A stretch of 64,000 bases of DNA from Candidatus Marinacidobacterium sp. (GTDB lineage: Bacteria > Acidobacteriota > Vicinamibacteria > Marinacidobacterales > Marinacidobacteraceae): assembly GCA_965250045.1 (NCBI GenBank), contig OZ252286.1, forward strand, positions 434,355 to 498,354, read 5' to 3'. How positions within the stretch are numbered: position 1 is the first letter of the stretch; the number at the start of each line of letters is the position of its first letter. Made by a program: the position numbers and the translations under genes. The notes below the pieces were generated by a model. That model saw only the letters and a program-made list of their open reading frames with translations. It was not told the origin of the DNA and made no database searches. This document shows, piece after piece, positions 822-21,195 of this stretch.

Positions 822-1730
822 ATGATCAGAACCACGCGTAACCCCCAGCTCCCAGCGGCATTCGCCGCCCTTCTCGCAATCGCCCTCCCGGCCACCGCGC
901 CCGCCCAGGACTTCCCCGCCCCCGAAATGGTGGAAATCAAGGGCGGCGTCTTCTTCATGGGCTCGCAAACCGGCCCGCCCCAGGAGAAGCCGATCCACGC
1001 CGTCCAGGTCTCCGACTTCTGGATCTCGAAGTACGAGGTGACCCACGCCCAGTTCGCGGCCTTCGTCGAGGACACCGGCTACGTCACCGAAGCGGAGAAA
1101 TTCGGCACGGGGCGGATCCTCCGGGACGGCAGCTTCGGCTATTACCCCGGCTTCATCTGGAAGGAACCCCACGGCCCCGGCTCGACGGTCGAAGAGCCCG
1201 ACAAGTACCCCGTCGTCCAGGTGAGCTGGAACGACGGGGTGGCCTACACCCGCTGGCTGAGCCGCAGGACGGGGCAGGCGTACCGGCTACCGACGGAAGC
1301 GGAATGGGAGTACGCCTGCCGCGGCGGCACCCAGACGACCTACTGGTGGGGCGACGAGTTCGATCCCACGATGCTGAACAGCTCGGTGACCTGGCGGCAG
1401 GGCGATGCGCCCTGGCCGCGGGACGAGCACACCCTGATCACGCGCGTGGATCGCTACCCGGCGAACGCGTTCGGCCTCCACGACATCCTCGGCAACAACT
1501 GGGAGTGGGTCCAGGACTACGCCTCCGCCGACCACTACGCCACGGAAGTTCGCCGGCCGGAGTCCCCCGTGGTGGACCCCCAGGGCCCCGCCTCCGGACA
1601 CGAGCGCGTCCTCCGGGGTGGCGGCTGGAACGGAACCGCCGCCCGTTCGACCTGTTCTTTCCGCTTCCTCGCCGATCCGCCGGTGTACCGCAGCGACCAC
1701 GTCAGCCTGCGGGTCGTCCGGAACCCCTGA
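822..1730 (+). CDS. formylglycine-generating enzyme (FGE/SUMF1) family protein. Secreted; signal peptide present.
   Basis: ATG at 822 is in frame with the long ORF 57..1730. N-terminal signal LPAAFAALLAIALPATAPAQ. FGE-sulfatase domain motifs MVEIKGGVFFMG, GYRLPTEAEWEYACRGG, GNNWEWV. Confidence 0.85.
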   Translation: MIRTTRNPQLPAAFAALLAIALPATAPAQDFPAPEMVEIKGGVFFMGSQTGPPQEKPIHAVQVSDFWISKYEVTHAQFAAFVEDTGYVTEAEKFGTGRILRDGSFGYYPGFIWKEPHGPGSTVEEPDKYPVVQVSWNDGVAYTRWLSRRTGQAYRLPTEAEWEYACRGGTQTTYWWGDEFDPTMLNSSVTWRQGDAPWPRDEHTLITRVDRYPANAFGLHDILGNNWEWVQDYASADHYATEVRRPESPVVDPQGPASGHERVLRGGGWNGTAARSTCSFRFLADPPVYRSDHVSLRVVRNP

Positions 1731-1823
1731 CGCGCGGGCGGGCACGGCCGGTGAGGGAACGCCGGTGTTCACACCGGCATCGCCCGCCAGACGCGGGCGA
1801 AACGCGAAACTTGGTCTACTCAT

Positions 1824-2234
1824 GTGGCCCGAAGTGCCGGGGCGGGCGCGTTCCTGTGGTCAGACCTCTCCGGTAGACAAGATCCCGCTTTGACCTCTGC
1901 GCTGCAACTGCATCCGGCGGAACAGCACTGGCTGGACGCCTACCGTCGGGAGCTCAAGAAGCGCCATCCGGACGCCGTGAAGGTCATGGTCATATACGGC
2001 TCCAGGGCTCGCGGCGATGGAGGCGAAGACAGCGACCTCGATGTCCTGCTCGTGGTCCGGAACGAGGCCGCCGGGTTGAAACGGGATCTACGTCGAATCG
2101 GTTATCGGCTGTCTGCGGCGTCGTACGCCGTACCGTCCATCCTCGCCTATACCGAAGGCGAGTGGGAGCATCGTAGGCGCGTCCGGTCGCCGTTTCTGGA
2201 AGCCGTCGAACGGGACGCCGTGAGGGTTCTGTGA
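1824..2234 (+). CDS. Minimal nucleotidyltransferase (MNT/MntA-like antitoxin-type NTase). No HEPN partner is present.
   Basis: NTase motif GSRARGDGGEDSDLDVLLVV (GS-x9-DxD). Alternative TTG start near 1891. Lies inside a 549-bp insert bounded by 80-bp direct repeats. Confidence 0.7.
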   Translation: MARSAGAGAFLWSDLSGRQDPALTSALQLHPAEQHWLDAYRRELKKRHPDAVKVMVIYGSRARGDGGEDSDLDVLLVVRNEAAGLKRDLRRIGYRLSAASYAVPSILAYTEGEWEHRRRVRSPFLEAVERDAVRVL

Positions 2235-2279
2235 ATCGCGAAGCCGTCATCGGTGAATGGCGGCGATCACAGGAATCCC

Positions 2280-2359
2280 TCTGTTCTTTCCGCTTCCTCG
2301 CCGATCCGCCGGTGTACCGCAGCGACCACGTGAGTCTCCGGGTGGTCCGGAACCCCTGA
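2280..2359. repeat. Direct repeat. This is a second copy of the last 80 bp of the FGE gene (copy 1 at 1651..1730, about 5 mismatches).
   Basis: Both copies encode ...CSFRFLADPPVYRSDHVSLRVVRNP-stop. Confidence 0.8.
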
Positions 2360-2402: not shown

Positions 2403-3188
2403 CTACCGGGCGCAGGTGAGGTGGCGTCCCCCGTCCACCGGAATCGTGACCCCGGTGCAAAAGCTCGCGTCGTCCGATAGCAAGAAGAGCGCGAGGTCGG
2501 CCACTTCCTCCGGAGTACCGATCCGGCCGATCGGGTGGGTGGTCTTGCTGTGCTCGACGAAGGCCGCGTAGCGCTCGGCGTCGAGCCCTCCGGCGGTATG
2601 GAGTTCCGTGCGGGTGACTCCAGGGTTCACCGAGTTGATTCGAACGCCTTTGGCGGCGAGTTCGAGGGCCGAGCAGCGCGTCAACTGATCAAGAGCTGAC
2701 TTGCTCGAGTTGTAGGCCAGCACTCCCGGGAACGACCGGATCCCGTTCACGCTGGACACGTTCACGATGCTGCCCTGCCGCTCGAGCAGGTGGGGTACCG
2801 AAAGCCGCATCAGATCGAAGACCGCCTCCACGTTGAGGGCGAACATCCGCTGCCAGGCGTCGAGTCCGGTGTTCTCGATCGTGCCGAAGGCGATCACCCC
2901 GGCGGAGTTCACCAGATGGTCCAGCCCGCCGAAGCGGCTCACGGTCTCGCTGACGACCCGGGAGCGGAAGTCGGCATCGGTCACATCCCCGGCCAGGGGC
3001 AGCGCCGCCCCGCCTGCCAACTCGATTTCGCGGGCCACGGCTCCGAGACGTTCGGGACGGCGAGCAGTGACGGTGACCTTTGCTCCCTCAGCGCCGAGCG
3101 CGAGGGCGGTGGCCCGCCCTATCCCGCTGGAAGCTCCGGTCACGACGGCGACTCTGTTCTGAAAGCGTTTCTGCGCGCGATTCGGCAC
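2403..3188 (-). CDS. short-chain dehydrogenase/reductase (SDR) family oxidoreductase
   Basis: GTG start, preceded on the coding strand by GAGGAGAA Shine-Dalgarno. N-terminus VAVVTGASSGIGRA (TGxxxGxG). NSAG and YxxxK-type motif YNSSK. Confidence 0.85.
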   Translation of the reverse strand: MPNRAQKRFQNRVAVVTGASSGIGRATALALGAEGAKVTVTARRPERLGAVAREIELAGGAALPLAGDVTDADFRSRVVSETVSRFGGLDHLVNSAGVIAFGTIENTGLDAWQRMFALNVEAVFDLMRLSVPHLLERQGSIVNVSSVNGIRSFPGVLAYNSSKSALDQLTRCSALELAAKGVRINSVNPGVTRTELHTAGGLDAERYAAFVEHSKTTHPIGRIGTPEEVADLALFLLSDDASFCTGVTIPVDGGRHLTCAR

Positions 3189-3284
3189 CGTTGTTCTCCT
3201 CTGGCTGGCAGCGGCGCCTCCACGCCACCCGCTGGACATCCCCAAACCCCGAGCGGGAGACTATCGCCGGTCCCCGAGAATCCC

Positions 3285-4265
3285 GTGCCCGAATATCCCG
3301 ATGTCGAGCTCTACCGCTGGGCGGTTGGGGACCGGATCGTCGGGGCGCGCCTCTCGTGCTTCCGGATCGCCTCACCGCATCTCCTCGCTTCGGTCGAGCC
3401 GGCGCCCGAGGCACTGGTCGGCCGCCTCGCCACCGGGGTGCAGCGGATCGGCAAGCAGCTCGTAATGGAGTTCGAAGAGGACCTGTTCTGCGCCGTCCAC
3501 CTGGCGGTGGCGGGGCGGTTCCACTGGACCGCGAGTTCCGGCTCCGTGAAACCGGTGCGTGTGTCTCCGCGCGGCAATCTGGCCGTGTGGACTTTCGAAT
3601 CCGGCCCGGTGGAAGGCGGGCACCTCCGGCTCGTCGAGAGGAGTCCCAAGAAACGGGCCTCCATCCGGGTCGGTCGCGGAGAAGAGCAGCTTCGGGCGCT
3701 CGATCGGGGCGGCCTGGAGATCCCCGGTTCCACCCGGGAGGCGTTCGCGGCCCGGCTCGCGGGTCTGACCAGCACCATCAAGCGCGTACTGACCGAACCG
3801 GCCCGCTTCGCGGGAATCGGAAACGCCTATTCCGACGAGATCCTGCATCGCGCCCACCTGTCGCCTTCGAAGCGCGCCGGCAGCCTCAACGACGGGGAGG
3901 TCGGACGGCTGCACGGGGCGGCCGAGTCCGTGCTCACTCAATGGGCGGCAAAGCTCCAGGACGAGTGCGGGAGGGCTTTTCCCACCGGCGTCACTGCTTT
4001 CCGCGAGGGAATGGCCGTTCACGGCCGCTTCGGCAAGCCGTGTCCCGACTGCGGCTCCCCGGTGCAGCGGGTTCGACGCGCCGAGAACGAGTTCAACTAC
4101 TGCGCGACGTGCCAGACCGGCGGACGACTGCTCGCCGACCGTGCGATGTCGCGGCTGCTGCGGAAGAAGTGGCCGCGGACGCTCAAGGCGGCCGAGGAAC
4201 GTCGGCGGCGAGTGAGGGGTACAACTTCTGAGCCGCCATCCGAGCAGGAGCCCGAATCAGCTTGA
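3285..4265 (+). CDS. Fpg/Nei-family DNA glycosylase (formamidopyrimidine or endonuclease VIII-like)
   Basis: GTG start gives (M)PEYPDVELYR, matching the canonical PELPEVE N-terminus with catalytic Pro2. C-terminal zinc finger CPDCGSPVQRVRRAENEFNYCATCQ. The upstream 165 codons of ORF 2790..4265 are antisense to the SDR gene. Confidence 0.85.
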   Translation: MPEYPDVELYRWAVGDRIVGARLSCFRIASPHLLASVEPAPEALVGRLATGVQRIGKQLVMEFEEDLFCAVHLAVAGRFHWTASSGSVKPVRVSPRGNLAVWTFESGPVEGGHLRLVERSPKKRASIRVGRGEEQLRALDRGGLEIPGSTREAFAARLAGLTSTIKRVLTEPARFAGIGNAYSDEILHRAHLSPSKRAGSLNDGEVGRLHGAAESVLTQWAAKLQDECGRAFPTGVTAFREGMAVHGRFGKPCPDCGSPVQRVRRAENEFNYCATCQTGGRLLADRAMSRLLRKKWPRTLKAAEERRRRVRGTTSEPPSEQEPESA

Positions 4266-4354
4266 GCAAGGCGGAGCCCCCGGGAGCTCAGGTCCTGGGA
4301 ATGGTTGACACTTGCACATTCGGCACGAACAGACTAGTCTCCTGTCTAGTCAGC

Positions 4355-4630
4355 ATGACGAAGAACACCATGAGCAACCGATGGCAGGTTCAGACCGCCA
4401 AGGCCCGATTCAGCGAGTTTCTGGAACGAAGCCTGGACGAAGGACCCCAGATTGTTACCCGGCGCGGAGTCGAGACCGCGGTACTCGTGCCTATTGAGCA
4501 ATGGCGTCGCCTCGAGCGCATGACCAAACCCGATTTGAAGCAACTACTTCTCTCACCGGACGCTCGCACCGACTCCTTGACGCCACCTCGACGTCGATTC
4601 TCCCGGCGCCCGCCTCCGGATCTCGACTAG
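4355..4630 (+). CDS. Phd/YefM-family antitoxin
   Basis: MSNRWQVQTAKARFSEFLERSLDEGPQIVTRRGVETAVLVPIEQWRRLE matches the Phd/YefM fold pattern. Immediately upstream of a PIN toxin. Alternative start at 4370. Confidence 0.7.
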   Translation: MTKNTMSNRWQVQTAKARFSEFLERSLDEGPQIVTRRGVETAVLVPIEQWRRLERMTKPDLKQLLLSPDARTDSLTPPRRRFSRRPPPDLD

Positions 4631-4634
4631 CTCC

Positions 4635-5045
4635 GTGTATCTCCTCGACACGAATGTCGTCTCGGAACTCCGTCGCCAAAGACCTCATCCCGCGGTCGAG
4701 GAATGGATTCGACCAATACCCACAGAAAAGCTCCTTCTCTCGGCCATGACGGTCGGCGAAATCCAGGCCGGAATCGAGATCACCCGGGAACAGGACCGTT
4801 CCAAAGCCAAGGAACTCGAGGTGTGGCTTGATCAGGTGATCGCCAGGCACCAGATTCTGGTCCTTGATGCCCCGGTGATGCGGGAGTGGGCTCGCCTCAT
4901 GCACCGGACATCGGACACGCTGATTCAGGATGCATTGATTGCCGCAACCGCCGCAGTGCACCGATTGACCGTGGTAACCCGGAATGTCCGGGATTTCGAA
5001 CCGTTCGGTGTCGGGACACTCAATCCGTTTCGTCATCAGGCATAG
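4635..5045 (+). CDS. vapC: VapC-type PIN-domain toxin
   Basis: GTG start 4 bp after the antitoxin stop. (M)YLLDTNVVSE... contains PIN acidic residues. Confidence 0.85.
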   Translation: MYLLDTNVVSELRRQRPHPAVEEWIRPIPTEKLLLSAMTVGEIQAGIEITREQDRSKAKELEVWLDQVIARHQILVLDAPVMREWARLMHRTSDTLIQDALIAATAAVHRLTVVTRNVRDFEPFGVGTLNPFRHQA

Positions 5046-5085
5046 CTGTCACCCCCGCGAACGTCGGCGGCCGTGTCATCCGGGG

Positions 5086-5160
5086 TTGGCAGGGGGTGCG
5101 GCACTCACGTTGGCAGGGCGCAGCGTCCTCGGCGCTGGTTTCGCGCTCCCGCGCGTGCCG
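5086..5160. repeat. Family-C REP-like element (CACGTTGGCA...GCGCTGGTTTCGCGCTCCCGCGCGTGCCG). It diverges from full copies after about 5160.
   Basis: Fuller copies at 37320-37500 and 63410-63600 continue ...AGAGGTCAGCGTTCCAAGCCGTCCCCGCGCTT, which is absent here. Confidence 0.55.
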
Positions 5161-5419
5161 GGCCCCTATAGGATCGCGGGCGTCATGTGGGAGTTGGTTT
5201 TCCAGTTCCCGCGACCTCAAGTGAGGTTGGCCTATCCGCCGGGAGTATCAGCCGGCCCCGGTGCTGCGAGCACCTGCGGTGGACCCCGTACCCCGACGGA
5301 TGGCCGTGATGGCACACCCTGTGGAGAGTTTGCGCCAATCGAGCGCCCATATAGGGCTTGGCTGCCATCGCGGCAAGGCGGACCTTTTTACGGAGCGGAA
5401 GCTCAAGGGAACACCCGCG
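5161..5419 (+). ncRNA. Candidate IS110-family bridge (guide) RNA locus in the left noncoding end. This is a hypothesis.
   Basis: The noncoding span (extent approximate) lies between the putative element junction and the transposase ATG. IS110/IS621-group elements are known to encode a roughly 180-nt structured bridge RNA in this position. Confidence 0.3.
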
Positions 5420-6691
5420 ATGGAAGAGAAGGTTTTTTCCTGTTTCGTTGGGATCGACTGGGGCGAGAAGAAGCACCAGGTGTGCATATTGGATGGTGCG
5501 GGGAGGGAGCTGGGAAGCCGCTCCTTTTCGCACCAGGGCAAGGGCCTGAAGGCGCTGGTCAAGTGGCTGCTGGAGAAGGCGGACGCGGGGCCGGAGTCGG
5601 TGGCGGTAGCGATCGAGCGGCCTGACGGGCCGGTGGTGGCGACGCTGCTGGCGGCGGGGTTCGCGGTGCATGTGATCAACCCGCGGCAGTCGAGCAATCT
5701 GCGGAAGTTCGTTTCCCATGCGGGGCACAAGGACGACCATCGGGACGCGGGGATGCTGGCGGGGGCGGCGAGGACCCACCGTCAGGTGATGCGTCGGCTG
5801 CGGCCGCATCCGGAGTTGATCGAGCGGCTGCGGGAGCGGACGAAGACGGCGGACCGTCTGCTCCGGGAACAGCTGCGGCAGTGCCAGCGGATTCGGAACG
5901 CGCTGGTGGACTTCTTCCCGCAGATGCTGGAAGTGGCGAGCAAGCTGAAGCATCTGGGGCAGCCCTTGTTCTTTGAGATCTGGGAGAAGGCTCCGACGCC
6001 GGCCGCGGCGCGGAAGGTGCGGCGGTCGACCTGGGCGTCGCTGCTGCAGCGCTACGGGGTGAAGCGGATCTCGGCGGAGCGGGTGTTCGAGCTGTTCCGA
6101 GAGGAGCCTCTGACGGTGGCGCCGGGGGCGACCGCGGCGGCGGTGGAGACGATTCGGACGGCGCTGACGCTGTTGCGGGTGGTGAACGCGGAGGTCGCGC
6201 GGGCGGAGGAGCAGATGACGCAGTTGCTGGATGCGCTGTCGGAGACGGAGGAGGTTGGGGGCGGCCCGGCGGCGCCGGGTCCGGATCTGGTCACCATCCT
6301 GCGGTCTCGGAAGGGGCTGGGAGACAAGTCGCTGGCGCGGCTGTTCGCCTGGGCGTTCGAGGCGGTGTGCGGCGGCGACTACCGCCGCCTGCGAGCGGCG
6401 TCGGGGGTGGCTCCGGTGGGGGAGCAGTCCGGGACGGTGACCCGAGCTCGTATCCGGCGCTCGGTGCCCTACTCTTTGCAGCAGGCGGCCTACATTCTGG
6501 CGCGGGGGGTGTTGCGGTGGGACGAGGAGGCAAAGGCGTACAACCGGAAGCTGAAGGAGGCGGGGAAGACGACGGCGCGGCGGCAGCGCGGGATCGCGGA
6601 CAAGCAGTTTCGGGTCTTGTGCGCGATGGTGCGCACCCGCACCCTCTTCGACCCGAACTTCCGTGGCCGGAGCGGGAGGGCCGCCGCCTGA
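5420..6691 (+). CDS. IS110-family transposase (DEDD recombinase)
   Basis: MEEKVFSCFVGIDWGEKKHQVCILD is the N-terminal RuvC-like DEDD motif of IS110 transposases. 423 aa. Confidence 0.9.
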   Translation: MEEKVFSCFVGIDWGEKKHQVCILDGAGRELGSRSFSHQGKGLKALVKWLLEKADAGPESVAVAIERPDGPVVATLLAAGFAVHVINPRQSSNLRKFVSHAGHKDDHRDAGMLAGAARTHRQVMRRLRPHPELIERLRERTKTADRLLREQLRQCQRIRNALVDFFPQMLEVASKLKHLGQPLFFEIWEKAPTPAAARKVRRSTWASLLQRYGVKRISAERVFELFREEPLTVAPGATAAAVETIRTALTLLRVVNAEVARAEEQMTQLLDALSETEEVGGGPAAPGPDLVTILRSRKGLGDKSLARLFAWAFEAVCGGDYRRLRAASGVAPVGEQSGTVTRARIRRSVPYSLQQAAYILARGVLRWDEEAKAYNRKLKEAGKTTARRQRGIADKQFRVLCAMVRTRTLFDPNFRGRSGRAAA

Positions 6692-6756
6692 CGGCGCGCT
6701 GACGCTCCGCCCGGCGGAACCGTTTCCTCAGACCGGCCTTTTGCTCCAGGTGTTGG

Positions 6757-6982
6757 TGTGGGAAGGGTGGGAAGGGCGCACGCGCTGCCCCCGCGTTGCG
6801 GGCTACCGCTCCCCGTCCTGGCGGGAGGCGTGCGCGCTTTCCACGCTTTCCACACCCGCCGCCGCCACTCGTTCCTTGCCTGTGGGAAGGGTGGGAAGGG
6901 CGTCCGCGCCCTCACCCACGCACCGCACCGGCCCCCAGCGCGCTTGCCGAGCACGCGGGCGCGCTTTCCACGCTTTCCACAG
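6757..6982. repeat. Two tandem roughly 124-bp units. Each carries a G-quadruplex-type motif GGGAAGGGTGGGAAGGG and an imperfect complementary arm GCGCGCTTTCCACGCTTTCCAC.
   Basis: G4 motifs at 6760-6776 and 6884-6900. Partner arms at 6832-6856 and 6959-6982. Confidence 0.7.
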
Positions 6983-7065
6983 GACCCCGCCGCCATTCCT
7001 GTCGCACTGCCCCGCCGCAGAACAGGCACGCTCTCCCACCCCGCCCCAGCCCCTCCGCCGCCAGC

Positions 7066-7110
7066 CGCCGGAAAAAACAAAATGGCCGCAAACTCAACGG
7101 GTTTGCGGCC
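7066..7110 (-). terminator. Rho-independent terminator for the minus-strand DUF4013 operon
   Basis: Perfect 10-bp stem GGCCGCAAAC/GTTTGCGGCC with a 7-nt loop. On the minus strand it is followed by ATTTTGTTTTTTCC. Confidence 0.75.
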
Positions 7111-7205
7111 CTGCCGCATGACCCACGGCCCTCTGTTTACCCCCTTGCATTCTCATGGAGAGTCCACCGGGAGAACTGGCCGGCGGTCCCTGAGCTGATC
7201 CGCGG

Positions 7206-7973
7206 TCAGGCGACTCCCGGCTCCACGCGGACGCCCATCAGCCGTCCGGTGTGGCCCACCGCCGCTCCGGCGGCCGTGATCCCCCAGAAGTGGCCCGGGA
7301 TCGCGCCGATCAGGCACAGGAGGAAGGTGAGGTCCGAAACGATCGCGAACAGGATCAGGGTCAGCAGCATCACGACGTAGGTGCCGAAACTGCCGCGAAT
7401 CCACGCGATGTTCTCGTTCAGCCGGAAAGCCGCGGTGAAGCGGCCCGTCGCCGCCAGTTGCATGATGCCCGCCGGGATCAGCGCCTTGGCGATCAGTGCC
7501 GCGAACACGAGGAAAAAGACGGAGGTGATGCTGCCCAGGATCGAGGTCACTACCACCGCGGGTGAGCCCATGGACTGCCCGATCACCGCCCACAGGATCC
7601 CGATCCCCACGACAGCCACACCCATCGCGATGACGGCCAGCGAATACCCGAGGACCACCCCCAGCGCCTTGAGCCCGTCGGCCAGCAGGCCGCCGAAATC
7701 ATCCCAATCGGGCATCGGGTGCTCGTCACCCCGCAGGGTTCCCCGGGCCGTCCGCACGGCGAAGCCGAGGAGCGCGAGCAGCCCAAGGCCGAACAGGGGA
7801 ATGAGGAGAACCATGAGGCTGCCGATCAGGAACTTCGACAGCGCCTTCGGGTCCCGAAAGGCAAAGCCGAACAGCTGGCCGATGTCGAATCGCTCCGGCG
7901 CCGGGGGAGTCGGCGGTGGAGGTGGAGGCGGCGTCTGCTCGCCGGTAGTCGGAACTGGCTGGTCTTCGGTCAT
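7206..7973 (-). CDS. DUF4013-like polytopic membrane protein (paralog 1 of 3)
   Basis: Shared motifs [30 protein letters not shown] and multiple TM helices. SD GGAAGGAAAA precedes the ATG. Pro-rich N-terminus. Confidence 0.7.
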   Translation of the reverse strand: MTEDQPVPTTGEQTPPPPPPPTPPAPERFDIGQLFGFAFRDPKALSKFLIGSLMVLLIPLFGLGLLALLGFAVRTARGTLRGDEHPMPDWDDFGGLLADGLKALGVVLGYSLAVIAMGVAVVGIGILWAVIGQSMGSPAVVVTSILGSITSVFFLVFAALIAKALIPAGIMQLAATGRFTAAFRLNENIAWIRGSFGTYVVMLLTLILFAIVSDLTFLLCLIGAIPGHFWGITAAGAAVGHTGRLMGVRVEPGVA

Positions 7974-8089
7974 CGTTTTCCTTCCGGGGATACCAGGGTC
8001 ATTTCCCTTCCCCGAATCCAGTTAACGAATACGACTCGCGAAAGTTCTTGGGCGCTGGGGACGACGCGGGGTGCTGTCTCCACGGGCCG

Positions 8090-8764
8090 CTAGATCCCCA
8101 TCAGGCGGGCGACGCGGCCGAGAGCCACTCCCGAGGCGGCGTGACCCCAGAAGATGCCCGGGATCAGCCCGATCCCGCAGAGCGCGGAACTGGCGGTCGA
8201 CAACACCTCGATCAGGATCACGATCAACAGGAAGATGACGTAGGTCCCGAGGTGGGCCTGGATCAGGCGGAGGTTTTCCTGGAACCCGAACGCCGATCGG
8301 ATCTCGTTACTGGCGACCATCCGCGCCACGGCCACCGGCATGAGCGCGTAGGCGAGCAGGCTCAGCAGCAGAGTCAACGGACCGAGGACCACGTTCGCGA
8401 GCGCGCCCAGCACCGGGATGAAGCCGAGGATGCCGATGACTACCGTCAAGGCGAGCACCGGCAGGAGATAGCCGAGAATCACGCCGAGCACGCGCAGCCC
8501 GTCACCCAGTATCTGGCCGAGATCTCCCCACTCCGGCATCGGGTGCTCCTCGCCATTGCGGGCGCGCTGCGCCGTTTGGAACAAGAAGCCGAGGAGAGCG
8601 AGCAGACCAAGTCCGAAGAACAAGATGCCGATCACCGCGAGGCACCCGCCGAGGAACTTCGGCAAGGCTCGCGGATCCCGGAAGGAGCCTCCGAGAATGT
8701 CTCCGAGATCCAGGGTTCCGGACGCGGCGGCCCTGCCGTTCGGGGTGGGCTGTTCTTGGGTCAT
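8090..8764 (-). CDS. DUF4013-like membrane protein (paralog 2)
   Basis: Start MTQEQ preceded by GGGAGAA. Motifs SFRDPRALPKFL, GEEHPMPEW, DGLRVLG. Confidence 0.7.
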   Translation of the reverse strand: MTQEQPTPNGRAAASGTLDLGDILGGSFRDPRALPKFLGGCLAVIGILFFGLGLLALLGFLFQTAQRARNGEEHPMPEWGDLGQILGDGLRVLGVILGYLLPVLALTVVIGILGFIPVLGALANVVLGPLTLLLSLLAYALMPVAVARMVASNEIRSAFGFQENLRLIQAHLGTYVIFLLIVILIEVLSTASSALCGIGLIPGIFWGHAASGVALGRVARLMGI

Positions 8765-12441: not shown

Positions 12442-13422
12442 TCAGCGGGCCGAAGTCGGAGTCTCGCCGGCGAGGATCCGCCGGAAGACGCCCATTTCGA
12501 TATTCCCGCCGGAAACGACGCAGACGATCCGGCGCTTTCGGCCTTCTTCGCCCGGACGGATCGGCACCCGGCCGGCCACCGCCACCGCCACCGGGCTCGC
12601 GCCGGCGCCCTCCGCCACGATCCGGCTCCGCCCCGCCAGAATGCGAACCGCGTCTGCGATCTCGTCGGGGGACGCGAGCAGCGGCTCGTCGAGAAGCTCC
12701 TGGACCAGCGGCCACATCGGCTCCAATACGGTGTTCCCGCCGATCCCGTCCACGAAGCTGGGCTCGGTGTCGATCCATTGAGGAGACCCGTGTTCAACCG
12801 CGGCCACCACCTTGGCTGAGGTAGTGACTTCCACGGGATGCACGCGCGCCGCCGAGCCCTTCTGCCGGAGGGCGCTAGAAATGCCGCAGCTAAGCCCGCC
12901 GCCTCCGAAGGGCACCAGTACGGCGTCCACGTTCGGCAGATCTTCGAGAATCTCCAGTCCGGCGGTGCCGTTGCCGGCCATCACCGGATCCCCTTCCACC
13001 GGGTGAACGAAGCGGGCGTCGGATCCCGGGTGGGTGTGGGTGACGATCGCCTTCCACCACTCGGCGAACGGCTCCACCACGACCTCCGCCCCGAGGGCCG
13101 CGATGGCCTGACGCTTGTTCTCCGGGGACGTCTCGGGCACAACCACAGTGCAGGGGACTCCCCGCTCCCGCGCCATGAAGGCAGCCGCCTGTGCCCAGTT
13201 CCCGGCGCTCGCGGTCACCACCCCGCGCGAGAGTTCCGCGTCGTCAAAGGACGCGAAGAGGTTGGCGGCAGCGCGGATCTTGAAACAGGCGAAGGGCTGG
13301 AGGTTCTCCAGCTTCAGCCAGATCTCGTCCGGGCCGTCCACCGGCAGCCGGACCAGCGGCGTCCGGACCGCGTAGGGGGCGATCCGCGAACGAGCCGCTT
13401 CGATTTGTTCCAGGGGGATCAT
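12442..13422 (-). CDS. PLP-dependent threonine/serine dehydratase-family enzyme
   Basis: Lys-containing motif FACFKIRAA (PLP site) and glycine-rich loop PFGGGGL. About 320 aa, typical of catabolic threonine dehydratase or serine racemase-like enzymes. Confidence 0.8.
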   Translation of the reverse strand: MIPLEQIEAARSRIAPYAVRTPLVRLPVDGPDEIWLKLENLQPFACFKIRAAANLFASFDDAELSRGVVTASAGNWAQAAAFMARERGVPCTVVVPETSPENKRQAIAALGAEVVVEPFAEWWKAIVTHTHPGSDARFVHPVEGDPVMAGNGTAGLEILEDLPNVDAVLVPFGGGGLSCGISSALRQKGSAARVHPVEVTTSAKVVAAVEHGSPQWIDTEPSFVDGIGGNTVLEPMWPLVQELLDEPLLASPDEIADAVRILAGRSRIVAEGAGASPVAVAVAGRVPIRPGEEGRKRRIVCVVSGGNIEMGVFRRILAGETPTSAR

Positions 13423-13454
13423 GGGCGCGGGAGTCTAAGCGCGGACGCCGGTGG

Positions 13455-13555
13455 CGGCCCGGAGGCCGCCTGCCGCCCGGAGGCCGCCTGCCGCCCGGAG
13501 GCCGCCTGCCGCCCGGAGGCCAACTGCCGCCCGGAGGCCGACTGCCGCCGCGAGC
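13455..13555. repeat. Tandem repeat, 18-bp unit CCGGAGGCCGCCTGCCGC, about 5.5 copies. The last two copies are variant.
   Basis: Seen directly. Lies in the intergenic gap between the coaX stop and the dehydratase start. Confidence 0.85.
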
Positions 13556-13599
13556 GCGGCCGGACCATGCGCTACAAGTCGGGCGCTACGAGCCGGGCG

Positions 13600-14370
13600 C
13601 TAGTCCGCAGCCTGTCGGGAGTACACGATTCGGATCCCCTCCAGCGTCAGGCGTTCGTTCACGACGTCCACCACTCCGCTCCAGTCGGCCACCTGCTGAG
13701 CGAGCCCGCCGGTGGCAATCACCGTGTAGTTCCCGCCGAGTTCCTCCTTCAGCAGCCGGACCATCTCGCGCACCATTCCGGTCCAGCCGAGGACGAGCCC
13801 GGACTGCATGGCGGCGACGGTGTGCGTCCCGACGACGCGCTTCGGCGGCCGGAGTTCCACCCGTGGCAGGGCGGCCGTCCGCCGGACCAGCGCTTCGGCG
13901 GAAACCCCGAGTCCGGGCGCGATGGCCCCGCCCCGGTATTCCCCTTCCTCGGACACCACATCGAAGGTGAGCGCGGTACCCGCATCCAGGACGATGGCCG
14001 CGACTCCGTAGAGGTGATGGACCGCCGCGGTGTTGGCGATGCGGTCCGGACCGGTCTCCTCGGGAGTGTCCACCGCCAGGCGAATCCCGCGGGCGGTCTT
14101 GTGGTTCAGGACGAAGAGGCGGTTCCCGAAGTGACGCTCCGCGAGGTTTCGCAGAATCTCGGTGGCCGAGGGGACCACGCTGGCGGCGGCCAGCCCGTGA
14201 ATGTCCTCCCGCGAAACCCCTGCCCCGGTGAGGAAGCTGTCGAGCAGCGCCGCGGTCTCGTCGGCCAGCCGCTCGGCCTGGGTGGAAATCCGCCAGTCGC
14301 AGACCCAGCGCTCGCCGTCATGGAGGCCGATGGCGGTCTTGGTGTTGCCGACGTCGAAGACGAGGAGCAT
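13600..14370 (-). CDS. coaX: type III pantothenate kinase
   Basis: MLLVFDVGNTKTAIG N-terminus (the CoaX DVGNT motif). 256 aa. The upstream 100 codons of the ORF are a GC-driven extension. Confidence 0.9.
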   Translation of the reverse strand: MLLVFDVGNTKTAIGLHDGERWVCDWRISTQAERLADETAALLDSFLTGAGVSREDIHGLAAASVVPSATEILRNLAERHFGNRLFVLNHKTARGIRLAVDTPEETGPDRIANTAAVHHLYGVAAIVLDAGTALTFDVVSEEGEYRGGAIAPGLGVSAEALVRRTAALPRVELRPPKRVVGTHTVAAMQSGLVLGWTGMVREMVRLLKEELGGNYTVIATGGLAQQVADWSGVVDVVNERLTLEGIRIVYSRQAAD

Positions 14371-14398
14371 GGTTACCCGCTGAATGCTACGGGAATGG

Positions 14399-15355
14399 TC
14401 AGCCCGTCTCCGGATCGCCGGATGGGGGGCGCGCGGCGGTTGCGCGCCAGATCCCCGCGAGCACACTCCCGATGAGCGAATGGAAGAGGCTCGAAATGGC
14501 GCTCGGAACCGCAACCAGGGGGCTCGTGAAGTTCTGTCCGGCAAGGACCACCCCGAGCCCGGAGTTCTGCATTCCGACTTCGATCGAAACCGTGCGCGCC
14601 GTCGCGACCCGGCGCGAAACGAGCCGGGTGAGCGCATAGCCGAAGAAGAAACCTCCCGCGTGGAGCGCAAACACCGCCACGATCAGCAGGTCGCCCGACT
14701 CGAGGATGATCTCCCGGCTGGAGCCGATGATGGAAGCCACGATCAGCGTGATCAGCACCACGGACGTGAAGGGACCGAAGGGGAGGAGTACCCGGGTGAC
14801 ACCCCGGGCGTAGCGTCTCAGGAAGAGACCCGCCGCGATGGGAAGGATGACCACCTGAACCGTGCTGAGGAGCAGTCCGGCGGCCGGCACGTCAATCCGG
14901 CTGCTCGCGAGCATGGAGGTCATCGCCGGGGTCATGAGCACCGAGAGGCTCGTCGAGACCGCCGTCATGGATACCGAGAGGGGCACGTCGGCGAGGGCGA
15001 GATAGGAAATGACGTTCGAAGCCACCCCGCCGGGGCAACAGGAAACAAGGATCAGACCCACCGCGAACTCCCGTGGAAGATCCAGCGCCCAGGCCACCGT
15101 CCATCCCATCAGGGGCATCACCAGGTACTGAAGCACCACTCCGAGCCCGATGGGCGCCGGCCGTCGCAGGACACGCCGGAAGTCGTCCACTTCCAGCGTC
15201 AGTCCCATCCCCAGCATGATGAGACCCAGCCCGTAGGTGATCAGGTCGCCGCTGAACCAGGTGAAGATCTCCGGCCGCCACAGCGCCAGCAGGCTGGCCA
15301 GCAGAACCCAGACCGGAAACGCGAAGGTGCCGATCCGGAGAGCCCGGTGAAGCAT
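14399..15355 (-). CDS. bile acid:sodium symporter (BASS) family transporter
   Basis: About 10 TM helices. BASS-like motifs GLILVSCCPGG and NSGLGVVLAG. Confidence 0.8.
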   Translation of the reverse strand: MLHRALRIGTFAFPVWVLLASLLALWRPEIFTWFSGDLITYGLGLIMLGMGLTLEVDDFRRVLRRPAPIGLGVVLQYLVMPLMGWTVAWALDLPREFAVGLILVSCCPGGVASNVISYLALADVPLSVSMTAVSTSLSVLMTPAMTSMLASSRIDVPAAGLLLSTVQVVILPIAAGLFLRRYARGVTRVLLPFGPFTSVVLITLIVASIIGSSREIILESGDLLIVAVFALHAGGFFFGYALTRLVSRRVATARTVSIEVGMQNSGLGVVLAGQNFTSPLVAVPSAISSLFHSLIGSVLAGIWRATAARPPSGDPETG

Positions 15356-15808
15356 CGGGTGAGCTTAGTGGGGGGACGCTCGGCCGGAACGGTGCCGGGC
15401 GGCCGGACCTGTCGACTCCCGGCGCCGCACGTTCGCTGTGAGAATGCCGGCGCGCGGGACGCCGACAGCCCGGATGGCGCGCTGGCCAGGGAACGTCGGC
15501 CAGTTCTCCCGGTGGGGGCGTTCACACCGGCACCGCCCCGCGGAGCGGGGCGAGAGGGCGTAACGCCAACCGCGAAGAAGCGCGGGGACGGCTTGGAACG
15601 CCGACCTCCGGTCGGCACCCGCTGGCCTCCGGCCAGCGCACGGCGCATCGGTAAGTGGCGGTGTGGTTCCCCTCTCGGCACGTGCCCCACCGGGAGAACT
15701 GCCCAGAGGTCGGCCTTCCCTCGCCGGCAGCGCCATCAGCAGGGCTGGGGTACCAGGGGAACCTCCCCTTGCACCGCAACTGGGCTGGCGTTCCCTCCCG
15801 GTTTCCGC
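15356..15808. repeat. Intergenic mosaic of family-D and family-C REP-like palindromic units
   Basis: Contains GGGAACGTCGGCCAGTTCTCCCGGTGGGGGCGTTCACACCGGCACCGCC (the exact inverse of 37420-37490), GGAACGCCGACCTCCGGTCGGCACC, and CCCACCGGGAGAACTG. Confidence 0.6.
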
Positions 15809-16939
15809 CTACCGCCGTCTGGCGGTGAGGGTCAGCGACGGACGGTCGCCGCCGGCGTGAACGAAATCCAGAACGAGGCGGCCTTCGGCGTCCCGGTGGG
15901 GCAGCGCCGGCTGGTCCAGGGAAGTCAAAGCCCAACCGGGGGGCAGCACGATCCGCGTCCGGGGACGGGCCAGGAAACGGAGCAGCCGGAGGTCCCCGTC
16001 CTCGAGCAGTTCAAGACCCGGATTGATCGCGGTCTGGTAAAGCCGGACGCGCGCGCTCCCGCCCTCTGGAACCGGGTAGCCCAGATCGGCCACCAGGACC
16101 TTCACATCGGCGGGGAGGGGCTCCGGGGCATGCGGGATCGCGGCGGCCTCCTCCACAGACACGATTCGGGTCGGCAACTCGACCCCGCGATCCACGTCGA
16201 GGGTCACGGGGTCGAGGATCTCGTCGGTGGGAATCAGCACCGAGAACACGTGAGCCTGACCCGGGGTGTCCAAGAGCAGTTCCAGAGCGAGGCGCAGCCG
16301 GTGTTCGGCGGGATCCTCGAGCCAGTAGATGATGTTCTTCTCGTCTTCCGCCCGGAAGTCCCCCTCGCTGGGGCGGACTGCTCCCGGGTCTCCGGGTTCG
16401 AAATCGAGCCGGACCGGGAGGGGCTCCGGACCGGGATTCAGGATGCCCAATTTGAGCCGGCCGTCCTCCACGGCGGTCTGCACCGGAACCGTCGAACTCC
16501 GGAGGACCGTGCCCGGGGGCAGCACCACCGTGATCCGTCCCGGCGGTGCGGCGTGCTCGAAGATCAGCCCGGCGGCGTGGGGCCGGACGTAGTGGGGCCG
16601 GTCGGCGGTCTCCTCGATGCGGAGACGCCGTTCCGCCCGTTCTCCGAGCGTCGTCCCGAGCGCAATCCGGAGGGCCTCCCCCGTCGCCGTGGTCGAAAGG
16701 ACGGTGCCGGCGGCCCGGTCCGTAGCCACGGCTCGTTCGGGGACGCTCCCGTGCGACAGGAGGAACACATGTTCCTCGACCCCGGCGCCTTCCACGATGC
16801 GGTCCGAGACGATCCGGATCTCGCTTCCGTCGCCGATCTCGTAGCGAGTCGCCAGCGCCAGGCTACGGAACGGGTCATCCGCGGTGACCAGAGCTGCGAC
16901 CGGAACCGACACCAGCAGCGCGACGAGGGTTTTCTTCAT
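15809..16939 (-). CDS. secreted hypothetical protein, 376 aa, with signal peptide
   Basis: Start MKKTLVALLVSVPVAALVTA. The 148 codons upstream in the ORF overlap the repeat region and are rejected. Function unknown. Confidence 0.6.
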   Translation of the reverse strand: MKKTLVALLVSVPVAALVTADDPFRSLALATRYEIGDGSEIRIVSDRIVEGAGVEEHVFLLSHGSVPERAVATDRAAGTVLSTTATGEALRIALGTTLGERAERRLRIEETADRPHYVRPHAAGLIFEHAAPPGRITVVLPPGTVLRSSTVPVQTAVEDGRLKLGILNPGPEPLPVRLDFEPGDPGAVRPSEGDFRAEDEKNIIYWLEDPAEHRLRLALELLLDTPGQAHVFSVLIPTDEILDPVTLDVDRGVELPTRIVSVEEAAAIPHAPEPLPADVKVLVADLGYPVPEGGSARVRLYQTAINPGLELLEDGDLRLLRFLARPRTRIVLPPGWALTSLDQPALPHRDAEGRLVLDFVHAGGDRPSLTLTARRR

Positions 16940-17042
16940 GACGCGGCCAGCCTCCCGAACCAGCCTCGGGTAGTGTTGTGCCTCTTGTCCGCACCCCGCA
17001 AATCCGCCCCCAGCGGGCAGGGCTTCCGGTAATGAGGGAGTC

Positions 17043-18407
17043 ATGAACGGCGGGACGGCGAACGAGAAAGAACACCAGAGCTCCATCGCCGCATGGCGCG
17101 ACCACATGTTGCGGGCCGGCGAAGTCCCCGGCCCCGAACTGGACGAGTTGGAGCGAGCGCTTTCGGAGGAATTCGGCTCACTCCGGGAAGCGGGGCTCGA
17201 CGACGACGACGAAGCGTTCCTCGTCGCCCTGAAGCGGCTGGGCGAACGGCATGCCCCAACCCGCGAGTTCGCTCTCCCGTACGCCCGGAATCTCCTCGAC
17301 CGGCCCGCGGAGACGGCAGATTCCGGCCGGCGCTCCCGGACCGAACCGATGGTGGTCTTCGGACTCGCCGCGCTCGCCGCCATCGCGATCAGGCTCCCGG
17401 AGCTGTTCGGCTTTCCGCTTGAGGACGGCGGCGGGGTCTATGTGCGGAACCTGAGCCTCTTCGTCTTTCCGTGTCTCGCGGGCTATTTCGGGTGGAAGCG
17501 CCGGCTCGAAGTCCCGAGCGCGATCCGGGTCGGCCTCGCCTTCGTCGCGGCCGCTGTCCTGGTCAACGCCTTTCCGTTTGCCTCGGAAGGAGCGACCGAG
17601 TCGCTCGCCGCGCTGCATCTCCCGATCGCCCTGTGGATGGCCGTCGGGGTGGCCTACGCCGGCGGGCGCTGGAACAGCACCTCGCACCGCTTGAAGTTCG
17701 TGAGATTTTCCGGCGAACTGTTCATCCACTGCGTGCTGATCGGGCTCGGCGGCGTGGTGCTCATCGGGCTGACCATGATCACCTTCCGCGCGATCGGGGT
17801 GGACGCCGAACGGCTTGTGGAGGAGTGGGTGCTTCCCTCGGGAGCCCTGGGGGCGATCGTCGTCTCGGGTTGGCTCGCCGATACGAAAGCGAACGTGGCC
17901 GGGAACATGGCGCCGATGCTGACCCGCATCTTCACCCCGCTCTTCGCTGCGGTCCTGATCACGTTCCTCCTGACGATGGCCTGGGCGGGAACCGGCATCC
18001 GAATGGAGCGTGAGGTGCTCATCGGCTTCGATCTGCTCCTCGTGGTGGTCGTCGGGCTGGTTCTCTACGCAGTGGCGGCGCGGGCACCGGCCGCCCCGCC
18101 CGGCGCCTTCGATGGCCTTCAGCTCGTTCTCGTGATTTCCGCGCTCGCCGCGGACGCGCTGGCGCTCGGAGCGATCGGCGCCCGGATCTCCGAGTTCGGC
18201 TTCACCGCCAACCGGACCGCGGCCCTCGGCGTAAACCTGATCCTGTTCGCCAACCTTGCCGGATCGGCCTGGCTCACCCTCCAGTTTCTCCGGAGGCGCG
18301 GTTCGGGCGCCGCGCTCGAGCGCTGGCAGACCGCCTTCCTGCCGGTGTACGCCGGTTGGGCGGCGGTAGTCGTCGCCCTGTTTCCACCGCTGTTCGGCTA
18401 CCGCTAG
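17043..18407 (+). CDS. polytopic integral membrane protein of unknown function, with a roughly 110-aa soluble N-terminal domain
   Basis: SD GAGGGAG before the ATG. About 10 predicted TM segments. Transcribed divergently from the secreted protein gene. Confidence 0.65.
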   Translation: MNGGTANEKEHQSSIAAWRDHMLRAGEVPGPELDELERALSEEFGSLREAGLDDDDEAFLVALKRLGERHAPTREFALPYARNLLDRPAETADSGRRSRTEPMVVFGLAALAAIAIRLPELFGFPLEDGGGVYVRNLSLFVFPCLAGYFGWKRRLEVPSAIRVGLAFVAAAVLVNAFPFASEGATESLAALHLPIALWMAVGVAYAGGRWNSTSHRLKFVRFSGELFIHCVLIGLGGVVLIGLTMITFRAIGVDAERLVEEWVLPSGALGAIVVSGWLADTKANVAGNMAPMLTRIFTPLFAAVLITFLLTMAWAGTGIRMEREVLIGFDLLLVVVVGLVLYAVAARAPAAPPGAFDGLQLVLVISALAADALALGAIGARISEFGFTANRTAALGVNLILFANLAGSAWLTLQFLRRRGSGAALERWQTAFLPVYAGWAAVVVALFPPLFGYR

Positions 18408-18413
18408 CAGCCG

Positions 18414-20374: not shown

Positions 20375-20445
20375 CTGGTTCCGGGCGCACCGCGATGTCC
20401 ACTTGACATCAACATGGAGGCATATGTTGCTGCCATGATGCTCCT

Positions 20446-21143: not shown

Positions 21144-21195
21144 CTCACGGCCGGAGGACCGGCACCGCGGAAAGGAATGCGGATTCGGTCGCCGG

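Follow-up and report, generated by a model that had tools for sequence, protein, structure and literature searches.

Results

Organisation of the FGE–SDR interval

The region studied lies in a 64-kb stretch of DNA (called the window below, at its full length), where a full-length FGE/SUMF1-type gene and a convergent SDR gene enclose a REP-like element, a minimal nucleotidyltransferase gene of the MNT type, the stump of a HEPN toxin gene and a second copy of the FGE 3' end. The features are as follows:

822–1730, plus strand: full-length FGE/SUMF1-type gene, 302 aa with signal peptide (Pfam FGE-sulfatase, E = 4.5e-62, profile positions 2–255 of 255)
1652–1730, plus strand: repeat copy 1, the last 26 codons and stop of the functional FGE gene (self-comparison of the window)
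1731–1805, no strand: REP-like palindromic element directly after the FGE stop, member of repeat families D2/D3
1890–2234, plus strand: intact gene for an MNT-type minimal nucleotidyltransferase, 114 aa (Pfam NTP_transf_2, E = 2.3e-9; PADLOC PDC-S09, E = 9e-14)
2222–2281, plus strand: predicted quasi-palindromic hairpin across the MNT stop and HEPN start, which overlap in GTGA (DNA fold −14.1 kcal/mol, z = −2.85)
2231–2281, plus strand: HEPN toxin gene stump, first 17 codons (VNREAVIGEWRRSQESL), 50 of 51 nt identical to the HEPN start of locus L046
2231–2359, plus strand: chimeric 42-aa ORF, HEPN codons 1–17 in frame with FGE codons 278–302 (ORF list)
2281–2359, plus strand: repeat copy 2, displaced FGE 3' fragment, gene positions 831–909 (self-comparison and FGE alignment)
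2360–2402, no strand: 43-nt spacer from the displaced FGE stop to the SDR stop (SDR-proximal alignment)
2403–3245, minus strand: SDR gene, convergent with FGE (Pfam adh_short_C2, E = 9e-62)

The element behind the FGE stop codon belongs to a family of short palindromes dispersed intergenically on both strands, as is required of REP-type sequences. Its motif AGGGAACGCCGRY occurs 15 times in the window, on both strands, against about 1 expected occurrence, and positions 1731–1805 fold as DNA into a set of hairpins (−29.4 kcal/mol, z = −3.2), which confirms the REP-like sequence reported for this insert in the initial annotation. Scans of positions 1600–2500 for promoter and terminator consensus sequences gave no match.

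The MNT gene, also recognised in that annotation, carries the minimal nucleotidyltransferase motif GSx10DxD, visible in its translation. Its start codon is TTG in the window versus ATG in the relatives, an alternative GTG start lies at 1824, and its nucleotide identity to the MNT genes of loci L046–L048 is 92.5–93%. In the relatives, a PF01909 nucleotidyltransferase gene and the PF05168 HEPN gene behind it overlap by 4 nt (GTGA). The HEPN gene is intact in L046 (141 aa), and its product matches HEPN proteins of the PDB at E = 1e-9. By its gene arrangement, this is a putative MNT–HEPN toxin–antitoxin (TA) pair. The window differs in keeping only 17 HEPN codons, and the MNT protein scores 27.1 bits with the NCBIfam MntA equivalog NF047752 against a cut-off of 60 and so does not reach the level set for the type VII MntA/HepT systems, with their AMPylating antitoxin; its partner in the relatives is a HEPN of the UPF0332 type and not a DUF86 HepT.

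Two statements of the initial annotation need to be revised in the light of these data. The nucleotidyltransferase was described as solitary, yet it occupies the same locus in at least 15 relatives and is accompanied by an intact HEPN partner in two of them (L046 and L047); HEPN was said to be lacking, yet positions 2231–2281 represent the first 51 nt of the HEPN gene. We presume that the MNT protein of the window is an orphan antitoxin.

The direct repeat

The direct repeat of the FGE 3' end, together with its bracketing of the insert, is real, while the dimensions first given (80 bp with about five mismatches, 549 bp) have to be adjusted slightly: positions 1652–1730 and 2281–2359 are identical at 75 of 79 nt, their starts are 629 nt apart, and the insert measures 550 nt (1731–2280). 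An exact match over the first 51 nt is found at just these two sites in the window, with 0 expected in 100 shuffles. The joint between the HEPN stump and the second copy (...GAATCCCT(C)TGTTC...) contains 1 nt of microhomology; it is known from a single assembly, in which one 3.67-Mb MAG contig carries both FGE and MNT.

All four mismatches between the copies are synonymous and occupy third codon positions (P = 0.004 if substitutions were random). The parallel case of L004 shows the same pattern, its FGE copies differing at eight sites, all synonymous, so that in the two loci combined 12 of 12 differences are synonymous (P = 1.4e-7 under random change). Older fragments are decayed, with seven synonymous and eight non-synonymous changes plus a frameshift in L002 and three and nine, respectively, in L082. 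These data indicate that the two copies of the FGE 3' end behave as functional alleles, one of them being a replacement copy, and not like the products of a duplication in situ.

The lineage-specific motif CTGTTCTTTCC is common to copy 2, the FGE gene of the window and the FGE gene of L082. Since the first 51 nt of the copies are identical, this lineage-specific variant included, either the parental sequences were very close or gene conversion has occurred since. The tail of the L049 fragment is identical to that of the window fragment.

The FGE–SDR interval as a variable hotspot

Comparison with about 30 orthologous loci from MAGs of marine Vicinamibacteria/"Ca. Marinacidobacterium" (a scan of metagenome contigs with FGE added one orthologue only, L053) demonstrated that the FGE–SDR interval is a strain-variable defence/TA hotspot in this marine Acidobacteriota clade. 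The GGT-FGE-[variable]-SDR-FPG synteny is kept in most of the loci, and the FGE orthologues show 73–97% identity. The FGE gene forms the conserved left border and the SDR gene the right one, and their stop codons are the exact limits of similarity between loci; for SDR, this was seen in the alignment of SDR-proximal sequences. The size of the interval ranges from 86 nt between the two stop codons in L009 to about 7 kb, and L009 thus provides the empty site in a relative for which the initial annotation had proposed to look.

Between these conserved core genes the cargo is variable and rich in defence and TA genes, as in core defence hotspots. Its PADLOC matches comprise an AriA/Old/GajA-like ATPase with Mrr_N, PDC-S01, PDC-S09 (the MNT protein), PDC-S16 and an RmrA-like HTH-M78 protein. 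No integrase or recombinase was found among the island genes of the approximately 30 loci, and transposase genes occur only in the islands of L002 and L083, one insertion sequence in each. The IS110 transposase gene of the window (5261–6691) was considered as a source of recombinase and rejected: it is located at a distance of 3 kb, in a segment specific to the window, is absent from the other loci with FGE fragments, and no IS end is present at the joints.

Repeated loss of the HEPN toxin

The HEPN gene is intact only in L046 and L047 and is damaged differently in all other relatives that could be checked: it contains a nonsense codon in L048 and internal deletions in L051/L052 and in L085, is full-length and frameshifted in L082, where an FGE fragment (positions 569–776) follows 60 nt downstream, and is cut at nt 51 in the window and L002 and at nt 30 in L004. 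In total, the toxin was lost at this orthologous locus in at least seven independent events.

The breakpoints of toxin loss cluster at HEPN nt 5–51, inside the predicted hairpin, and the 3' foot of the hairpin coincides with the HEPN break. The window and L002 share the breakpoint at nt 51 despite their non-sister MNT cassettes and different FGE partners. A consensus fold of the hairpin comprises 26 pairs across seven cassettes, the alignment of which contains no clean compensatory pair. When the sequences were folded singly, the sole hint of covariation was a register-shifted change from TTC:GAA to TCC:GGA.

A slippage between CACGAC repeats that would convert the L002 joint into the window joint was rejected because the expected product retains CACGAC and the window does not have it.

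Displaced FGE fragments in other loci

Displaced FGE 3' fragments recur across the loci with variable lengths: 79, 168 or 257 nt in combination with MNT cargo and 66, 285 or 453 nt with other cargo. Their 5' limits fall at FGE gene positions 457, 625, 654, 741, 831 and about 844, and all of them reach the stop codon except the internal piece of L082. The 89-nt steps between 79, 168 and 257 nt are a coincidence, as L002 has a 1-nt insertion and the other three lengths break the series. The 285-nt fragment of L048 does not represent a separate displacement; it results from a secondary deletion that joined the end of a MITE to an FGE stretch resembling it.

The fragment is located downstream of the MNT gene and truncated HEPN in the window, L002 and L004 and upstream of MNT in L046–L049, which means that stacking occurs in either order. 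Microhomology at the joints amounts to 1 nt in the window, 4 nt (CCTC) in L002 and 0–1 nt in L004; the first two are the MNT-side junctions whose parental sequences are clear. The fragments run on into sequence that in other loci lies behind a full-length FGE gene: the L046 fragment corresponds in this respect to the full gene of L002 ("type B" downstream sequence), that of L086 to the full gene of L008, and that of L004 to the full gene of the window. The most instructive is L047, which joins two island haplotypes existing separately in other genomes, an L003-like one (97% identical as far as position 9414 of L003, which is 220 nt before SDR) and, from about FGE position 457, an L082-like one.

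All three fusions of truncated HEPN with an FGE fragment are in frame at the joint, for which the probability by chance is about 1 in 9 to 1 in 27. When the 42-aa ORF was used as a query for further fusions, a word-indexed search gave no candidates, and an exhaustive search revealed no fusion and one more FGE fragment (P0122/L086); a second assembly with the exact 51|831 joint was not found in these searches.

Discussion

Origin of the repeat

The presented analysis suggests that the repeat is probably a scar left when two strain variants of the hotspot recombined untidily, i.e. by homology-facilitated illegitimate recombination (HFIR) with displacement of a gene 3' end. We suppose that the cargo of the hotspot is usually swapped between strains via ordinary homologous recombination within the core genes on either side and that an occasional event would be one-sided, one end being homologous and the other joined illegitimately. 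Selection would retain one full-length FGE gene, so the product would consist of this gene, the incoming cargo with its broken end, the displaced FGE 3' fragment and the sequence that followed FGE in the other parent. For the window, the parents may have been an FGE-REP-MNT-HEPN haplotype and an "empty" FGE-SDR haplotype, and an illegitimate joint between HEPN nt 51 and FGE nt 831 would have eliminated the toxin but not the antitoxin and created the 79-nt repeat. The sequences themselves show the anatomy of the locus, the variability of the hotspot, the lack of a recombinase, the differing fragment lengths, the joints at microhomology and the allelic, synonymous divergence of the copies; we infer the recombination pathway, the roles of the parents as donor and recipient and the number of steps (one or two).

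The loci show the signs by which HFIR is recognised: homology on one side, on the other side a non-homologous joint with no microhomology or a few nt of it, and a fragment colinear with the sequence after an intact copy elsewhere. Both parental haplotypes are seen for L047 and, for the window, the MNT–HEPN type only (L046/L047); the 43-nt spacer of the window has no counterpart in any other locus compared, and an "empty" parent carrying it is absent from all of them. This absence and several other observations count against HFIR as the source of the scar. The breakpoint at nt 51 shared by the window and L002 is unexpected if illegitimate joints are purely random, and the in-frame state of all three fusions, the identity of the first 51 nt of the copies and the single-assembly junction point in the same direction.

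The alternative that the locus arose in two steps is unlikely. According to it, an older displacement gave the order FGE, REP, MNT, full HEPN and FGE fragment, and a later selected deletion removed the toxin from HEPN nt 51 into the fragment, so that the 79-nt repeat is the remnant of a longer one. The L082 locus, which keeps the full length of HEPN ahead of an FGE fragment, resembles the proposed intermediate, internal HEPN deletions do occur (L051/L052, L085), and the foot of the predicted hairpin could be prone to deletion, which would account for the breakpoint that L002 and the window have in common. However, an old fragment should resemble the decayed ones of L082 and L002, and non-synonymous changes amount to 0 of 12 in the window and L004; to stay this clean, it would require repeated gene conversion. 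Moreover, in no relative does a full HEPN gene precede an FGE fragment extending to the stop codon.

One can also suggest, as a distinctly doubtful extension, that the FGE 3' coding region is a reusable "landing pad" for integrase-free cassette capture, by which a defence hotspot is built up, and that a conserved hairpin at the MNT/HEPN overlap directs the breakage. If so, independent events would clip the toxins at the same sites, HEPN nt ~30 and nt 51, with in-frame fusions of the stump with FGE as the outcome, and the process would be structured and recurrent instead of random illegitimate recombination.

Initially, the 629-bp unit was interpreted as a decayed integrative element, or as a cis-mobilisable cassette moved in trans by an integrase specific for the FGE 3' end, with the repeats as attL and attR, which now appears highly unlikely. 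The accessory nature of the cassette and the replacement copy of the gene 3' end within the direct repeat stand, and the empty site in L009, the slightly lower GC content of the insert (0.63 vs 0.68–0.73) and the stacking of cargo, which resembles tandem island arrays, fit such an element as well. Nevertheless, the islands of about 30 loci lack an integrase, and the boundaries are not those of att sites: with the same MNT cargo the repeat extends over 79, 168 or 257 nt in place of a constant length, and the right end falls inside the broken toxin gene, at nt 30 or nt 51, in place of a defined end. The close MNT homologues that were recovered sit at the FGE–SDR locus, and MNT and its flanking genes have diverged to a comparable degree, although not in step at each locus (in L082, identity is 96.8% for FGE and 81.7% for MNT). 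Scans of the window for tRNA and Rfam features were empty, which means that there is no tRNA-type attachment site.

It is still less probable that the 3' end of FGE was duplicated in tandem in situ together with the adjoining sequence and then decayed, with no exchange between strains. Microhomology-driven tandem duplications are common, and the copies agree fully over their first 51 nt, the lineage-specific variant included; yet copy 2 is followed by unrelated sequence without a second REP-MNT unit, all differences are synonymous and represent variants circulating in other alleles (as in the L049 tail), unlike the neutral decay of a dead copy, and L047 joins two different haplotypes.

The single MAG contig and the lack of a second assembly with the same joint might suggest that a variable locus was misassembled from a strain-mixed metagenome. 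This is hardly credible, as errors in assembly graphs join at shared sequence and not at a 1-nt HEPN/FGE microhomology, and analogous structures are present in independent assemblies (L002, L004, L046–L049 from four ENA assembly records, L082 and L086).

Relation to known systems

The proposed recombination scar represents a further case of an architecture and a kind of mechanism already known from the literature, and the FGE–SDR locus reveals no new kind of mobile element. The same architecture was described for C-terminal displacement at rhs, CDI and T6SS loci, for which HFIR was proposed as the mechanism (Kirchberger et al. 2017, PMC5361080; Jackson et al. 2009, as cited therein). In these systems, too, an incoming module brings its own 3' part of a conserved gene and pushes the old 3' end with the downstream genes distally, leaving a row of "orphaned" 3' fragments together with orphan protective genes, and no integrase takes part. 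The differences are that displacement here concerns an FGE gene of housekeeping type with synonymous allele ends in place of polymorphic toxin tips, and that the cargo consists of defence/TA cassettes, the orphan being an antitoxin left by truncation of its own toxin.

The HFIR studies themselves (de Vries and Wackernagel 2002; Prudhomme et al. 2002; Meier and Wackernagel 2003; the E. coli conjugation study PMC3240628) likewise deal with one homologous anchor, one joint at a microhomology of a few nt and foreign DNA trapped beside the anchor. The FGE case differs from them in being deduced from natural sequence variation only and in having the joint inside the homologue of the anchor gene, which results in a partial duplication.

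Islands, ICEs and cis-mobilisable elements integrate into the 3' ends of tRNA, tmRNA and protein genes and carry the replacement end in attP (Williams 2002, as cited in PMC10250203). The direct repeat of a gene 3' end, the intact target gene, the empty sites and the tandem accretion are common to these islands and the FGE locus, which differs by having no integrase, a variable extent of the repeat and an "end" inside a broken gene.

Previously, Johnson et al. (2023, PMC10250203) described core defence hotspots with conserved flanks, highly variable cargo and no obvious mobile element, for which homologous recombination of the flanks has been proposed. As that paper notes, such exchange would leave no scars, while the FGE–SDR locus bears FGE fragments that would record rarer one-sided events. 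How cargo is added to integrase-free defence islands between core genes is an acknowledged open point in the same work, and the locus is useful here because it keeps traces that flank exchange does not: fragments of differing length and age mark individual one-sided recombination events, and for L047 both parental haplotypes can be identified.

Erosion of chromosomal TA systems was demonstrated by Belot et al. (2026, PMC13617665), who reported frequent loss by deletion or toxin pseudogenisation, the antitoxin often outlasting the toxin. The FGE–SDR locus differs in that the losses are concentrated at one orthologous site, with breakpoints clustered at the 5' end of the toxin gene. It offers a compact set of natural variants in which the toxin was lost and the antitoxin kept, and the clustering of breakpoints gives a testable lead on structure-directed deletion.

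The FGE repeat and the HEPN remnant

The window feature is most simply explained as a scar of recombination in a defence/toxin–antitoxin hotspot that carries no integrase, accompanied by toxin erosion. The direct repeat of the 3′ end of the formylglycine-generating-enzyme (FGE) gene, proposed in the initial annotation, is confirmed at 79 nt with 75/79 identities, as are the REP-like sequence and the nucleotidyltransferase of the insert.

822–1730: intact FGE gene, 302 aa (Pfam FGE-sulfatase, E = 4.5e-62)
1652–1730: repeat copy 1, the end of the intact FGE gene
1731–1805: REP-like element of a dispersed family (15 motif hits vs ~1 expected; folding z = -3.2)
1890–2234: intact minimal nucleotidyltransferase (MNT) gene (NTP_transf_2, E = 2.3e-9)
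2231: GTG overlapping the MNT stop (GTGA) and starting a 42-aa ORF
2281–2359: repeat copy 2, beginning at FGE position 831

The first 51 nt are identical in both copies and absent elsewhere in the window (0 expected from shuffles). All four mismatches are synonymous and fall at third codon positions (P = 0.004 if changes were random), and both copies encode the C-terminal ...HVSLRVVRNP*. The MNT gene starts with TTG at 1890, where other aligned MNT cassettes have ATG; a public annotation (P0001) instead gives a 136-aa product from GTG at 1824. The 90%-identity protein cluster of the window FGE also contains ~618-aa gamma-glutamyltransferases, probably a clustering artefact from fused or mis-called GGT–FGE ORFs such as the mechanical ORF 57–1730.

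The HEPN toxin partner, previously reported as absent, persists as its first 17 codons. Codons 1–17 of the 42-aa ORF (VNREAVIGEWRRSQESL) match, at 50/51 nt, the start of the intact 141-aa HEPN gene that adjoins the orthologous MNT in L046/L047 (L numbers denote loci of other genomes, here of relatives), the product of which matches PF05168 and PDB HEPN proteins (E = 1e-9). Past HEPN nt 51, the window changes in frame to FGE position 831 at the joint ...GAATCCCT(C)TGTTC..., where the microhomology is 1 nt.

The FGE–SDR interval in related genomes

A genome scan with FGE gave 18 orthologous loci in Vicinamibacteria/“Ca. Marinacidobacterium” MAGs, and MNT-homologue look-ups and other searches added ~12. 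Their synteny is GGT–FGE–(variable)–SDR (convergent)–Fpg, the FGE and SDR stops being the exact limits of between-genome similarity. The accessory status suggested for the cassette is borne out, and the empty site that was sought exists: in L009 the interval is 86 nt and carries no cargo. Elsewhere it holds a TonB-dependent-receptor-like gene (seven genomes), an AAA_14/DUF4143 ATPase (PADLOC PDC-S01), an AAA_15/21 ATPase (AriA/Old/GajA-like) with Mrr_N, a HEPN-domain protein, or MNT(-HEPN) (PDC-S09) with DUF2188 (PDC-S16), HTH-peptidase M78 (RmrA-like) and DUF3368. None of the islands at the ~30 orthologous loci codes for an integrase or another site-specific recombinase; transposase genes were seen only in one IS each of L002 and L083, and neither tRNA nor Rfam features occur in the window. 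The FGE–SDR interval is a core defence hotspot lacking mobile-element hallmarks, a class described earlier (PMC10250203).

In L002 (6834–9700), FGE and MNT are separated by an IS, whose transposase ORF encodes 484 aa (7219–8673), and by REP/MITE copies. The more distant L084 (4955–5440) has no FGE; GGT is followed directly by MNT, a HEPN stump of ~29 nt and an 18-G homopolymer (5416–5433). The MNT–HEPN module also occurs outside the hotspot, since in L087–L089 (2501–3288, same sample series) a 68%-identical MNT and an intact 137-aa HEPN sit at an unrelated locus, flanked by an ankyrin-repeat protein gene on one side and a very large kinase-domain gene on the other.

Origin of the displaced FGE fragments

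Displaced FGE fragments recur across the hotspot loci, and all except that of L082 extend to the stop codon.

Table. Displaced FGE fragments: locus; length; 5′ limit in FGE; location; synonymous/non-synonymous differences from the full FGE gene; other damage
Window; 79 nt; 831; downstream of MNT-HEPN′; 4/0; none
L004; 168 nt; 741; downstream of MNT-HEPN′; 8/0; none
L002; 257 nt; 654; downstream of MNT-HEPN′; 7/8; frameshift
L048; 285 nt; 625; upstream of MNT
L046/L047/L049; 453 nt; 457; upstream of MNT; 14/6 (L046); indels (L046)
L086; ~66 nt; ~844; MNT not seen on the 549-nt contig
L082; internal piece, FGE 569–776; downstream of full-length HEPN; 3/9; 1-nt indel

In L046–L049 the order is FGE-ATPase-Mrr_N-′FGE-MNT-HEPN..., and the shorter L048 fragment is a secondary deletion between an end of the MITE-like CCAGTTCTCCCGGTGGGGG element and a similar FGE stretch. 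The sequence 3′ of a fragment is the sequence found 3′ of full-length FGE in another genome. The two parents of L047 can be recognised: its left part follows the L003 haplotype at 97% identity until 220 nt before SDR, after which the sequence switches to a haplotype resembling L082, at approximately FGE position 457.

In the window and L004 pooled, 12/12 differences are synonymous (P = 1.4e-7 under random change); therefore, the copies represent two functional alleles recently united, not a duplicate decaying in place. Copy variants also circulate in other alleles, the L049 fragment tail being identical to that of the window, and FGE is a mosaic, identical between the window and L082 for hundreds of nucleotides, while their MNT genes share only 82%.

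The simplest account of the window structure is that two island haplotypes recombined by homology-facilitated illegitimate recombination (HFIR), which has been demonstrated experimentally in several bacteria (PMC3240628; references in PMC5361080). A homologous crossover on one side would be coupled to an illegitimate joint on the other, with one intact FGE kept by selection. Either REP-MNT-HEPN′ could have entered an empty strain, anchored in FGE, or ′FGE-spacer from an empty strain could have replaced HEPN and the downstream cargo, anchored in SDR; as both routes yield the same product, the structure alone does not tell the donor parent. The architecture matches 3′-end displacement at T6SS/rhs loci, for which the same mechanism was proposed (PMC5361080). 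The feature adds a further case of a type of event already known, from a setting that is new.

A two-step history, in which a toxin-removing deletion followed an older fragment displacement, is suggested by the L082 arrangement; we consider it less probable, but a serious rival. With only 1 nt of homology at the joint, and comparable structures in other, independent assemblies, an assembly artefact is unlikely. The site-specific integrative element initially favoured is rejected on three defining marks: there is no recombinase, the repeat ends vary, and one end of the supposed element lies within a broken gene. In-situ tandem duplication of the FGE 3′ end fails, contradicted by the downstream context of copy 2 and by the synonymous-only divergence.

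Toxin erosion and breakpoint clustering

HEPN is intact in L046/L047, carries nonsense mutations in L048 and L050 and a frameshift in L082, and is internally deleted in L051/52 (nt 34–367) and L085 (nt 103–326). Other sequence takes its place from nt ~5 onwards in L049/L083 and, in L084, from nt ~29. In three loci it is fused to FGE: at nt 30 in L004, and at nt 51 in both the window and L002. MNT is intact throughout these loci, except for a 7-nt deletion in L002, where antitoxin, toxin and FGE fragment are therefore all pseudogenes. An intact MNT beside a damaged HEPN fits the published picture of toxin pseudogenisation (PMC13617665). The window MNT is most plausibly an orphan antitoxin; its score is below the curated MntA cut-off, so it is not classed as type VII MntA.

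Six of the seven HEPN deletion or replacement breakpoints fall within the first 51 of 426 nt, and the nt 51 breakpoint is common to the window and L002, though their cassettes are non-sisters. A quasi-palindromic hairpin is predicted at 2222–2281 (-14.1 kcal/mol, z = -2.85), covering the MNT stop and the HEPN start until nt ~51, with its 3′ feet on HEPN at nt 50–52 (outer helix) and nt 31 (inner helix); L046, L050 and L082 have comparable predicted folds. Structure-directed breakage at this hairpin would account for the clustering; as covariation gives it little support, we propose it as a hypothesis only. The breakpoint hotspots offer a modest, testable lead. The reading frame is kept at the joint in all three HEPN–FGE fusions, possibly by chance (~1 in 9 to 1 in 27).

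Other elements of the window

Long same-strand ORFs (545, 882, 454, 375, 278 and 506 aa) follow one another at 12838–23051, with essentially no Pfam matches even at E <= 0.1; the 375-aa ORF alone gives weak matches, to the CarboxypepD_reg and metallopeptidase families. The ORFs may represent genuine genes whose function is unknown, or else may arise spuriously from the high GC content. A Phd/YefM–PIN (VapBC-like) toxin–antitoxin pair (4262–5045), immediately after the Fpg/Nei gene, holds the same place in L001, L003 and L083 and is stable, unlike the MNT–HEPN pair. Between the PIN and DUF4013 genes lies a window-specific 2.1-kb segment (5074–7205; ~0.5 kb in L001) with an IS110-family transposase (5261–6691; DEDD_Tnp_IS110, E = 6e-32) and two long palindromes (GTGGGAAGGGTGGGAAGGGCG...CGCGCTTTCCACGCTTTCCAC) at ~6750–7000. 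The second dispersed repeat, CCAGTTCTCCCGGTGGGGG, has 15 window copies vs 0.07 expected (e.g., at 660–678, 15500–15702, 21961–22027, 32261–32327, 33904–33977 and 40884–41090), often as inverted pairs 30–190 nt apart, and is also inserted in the L047 and L048 islands.
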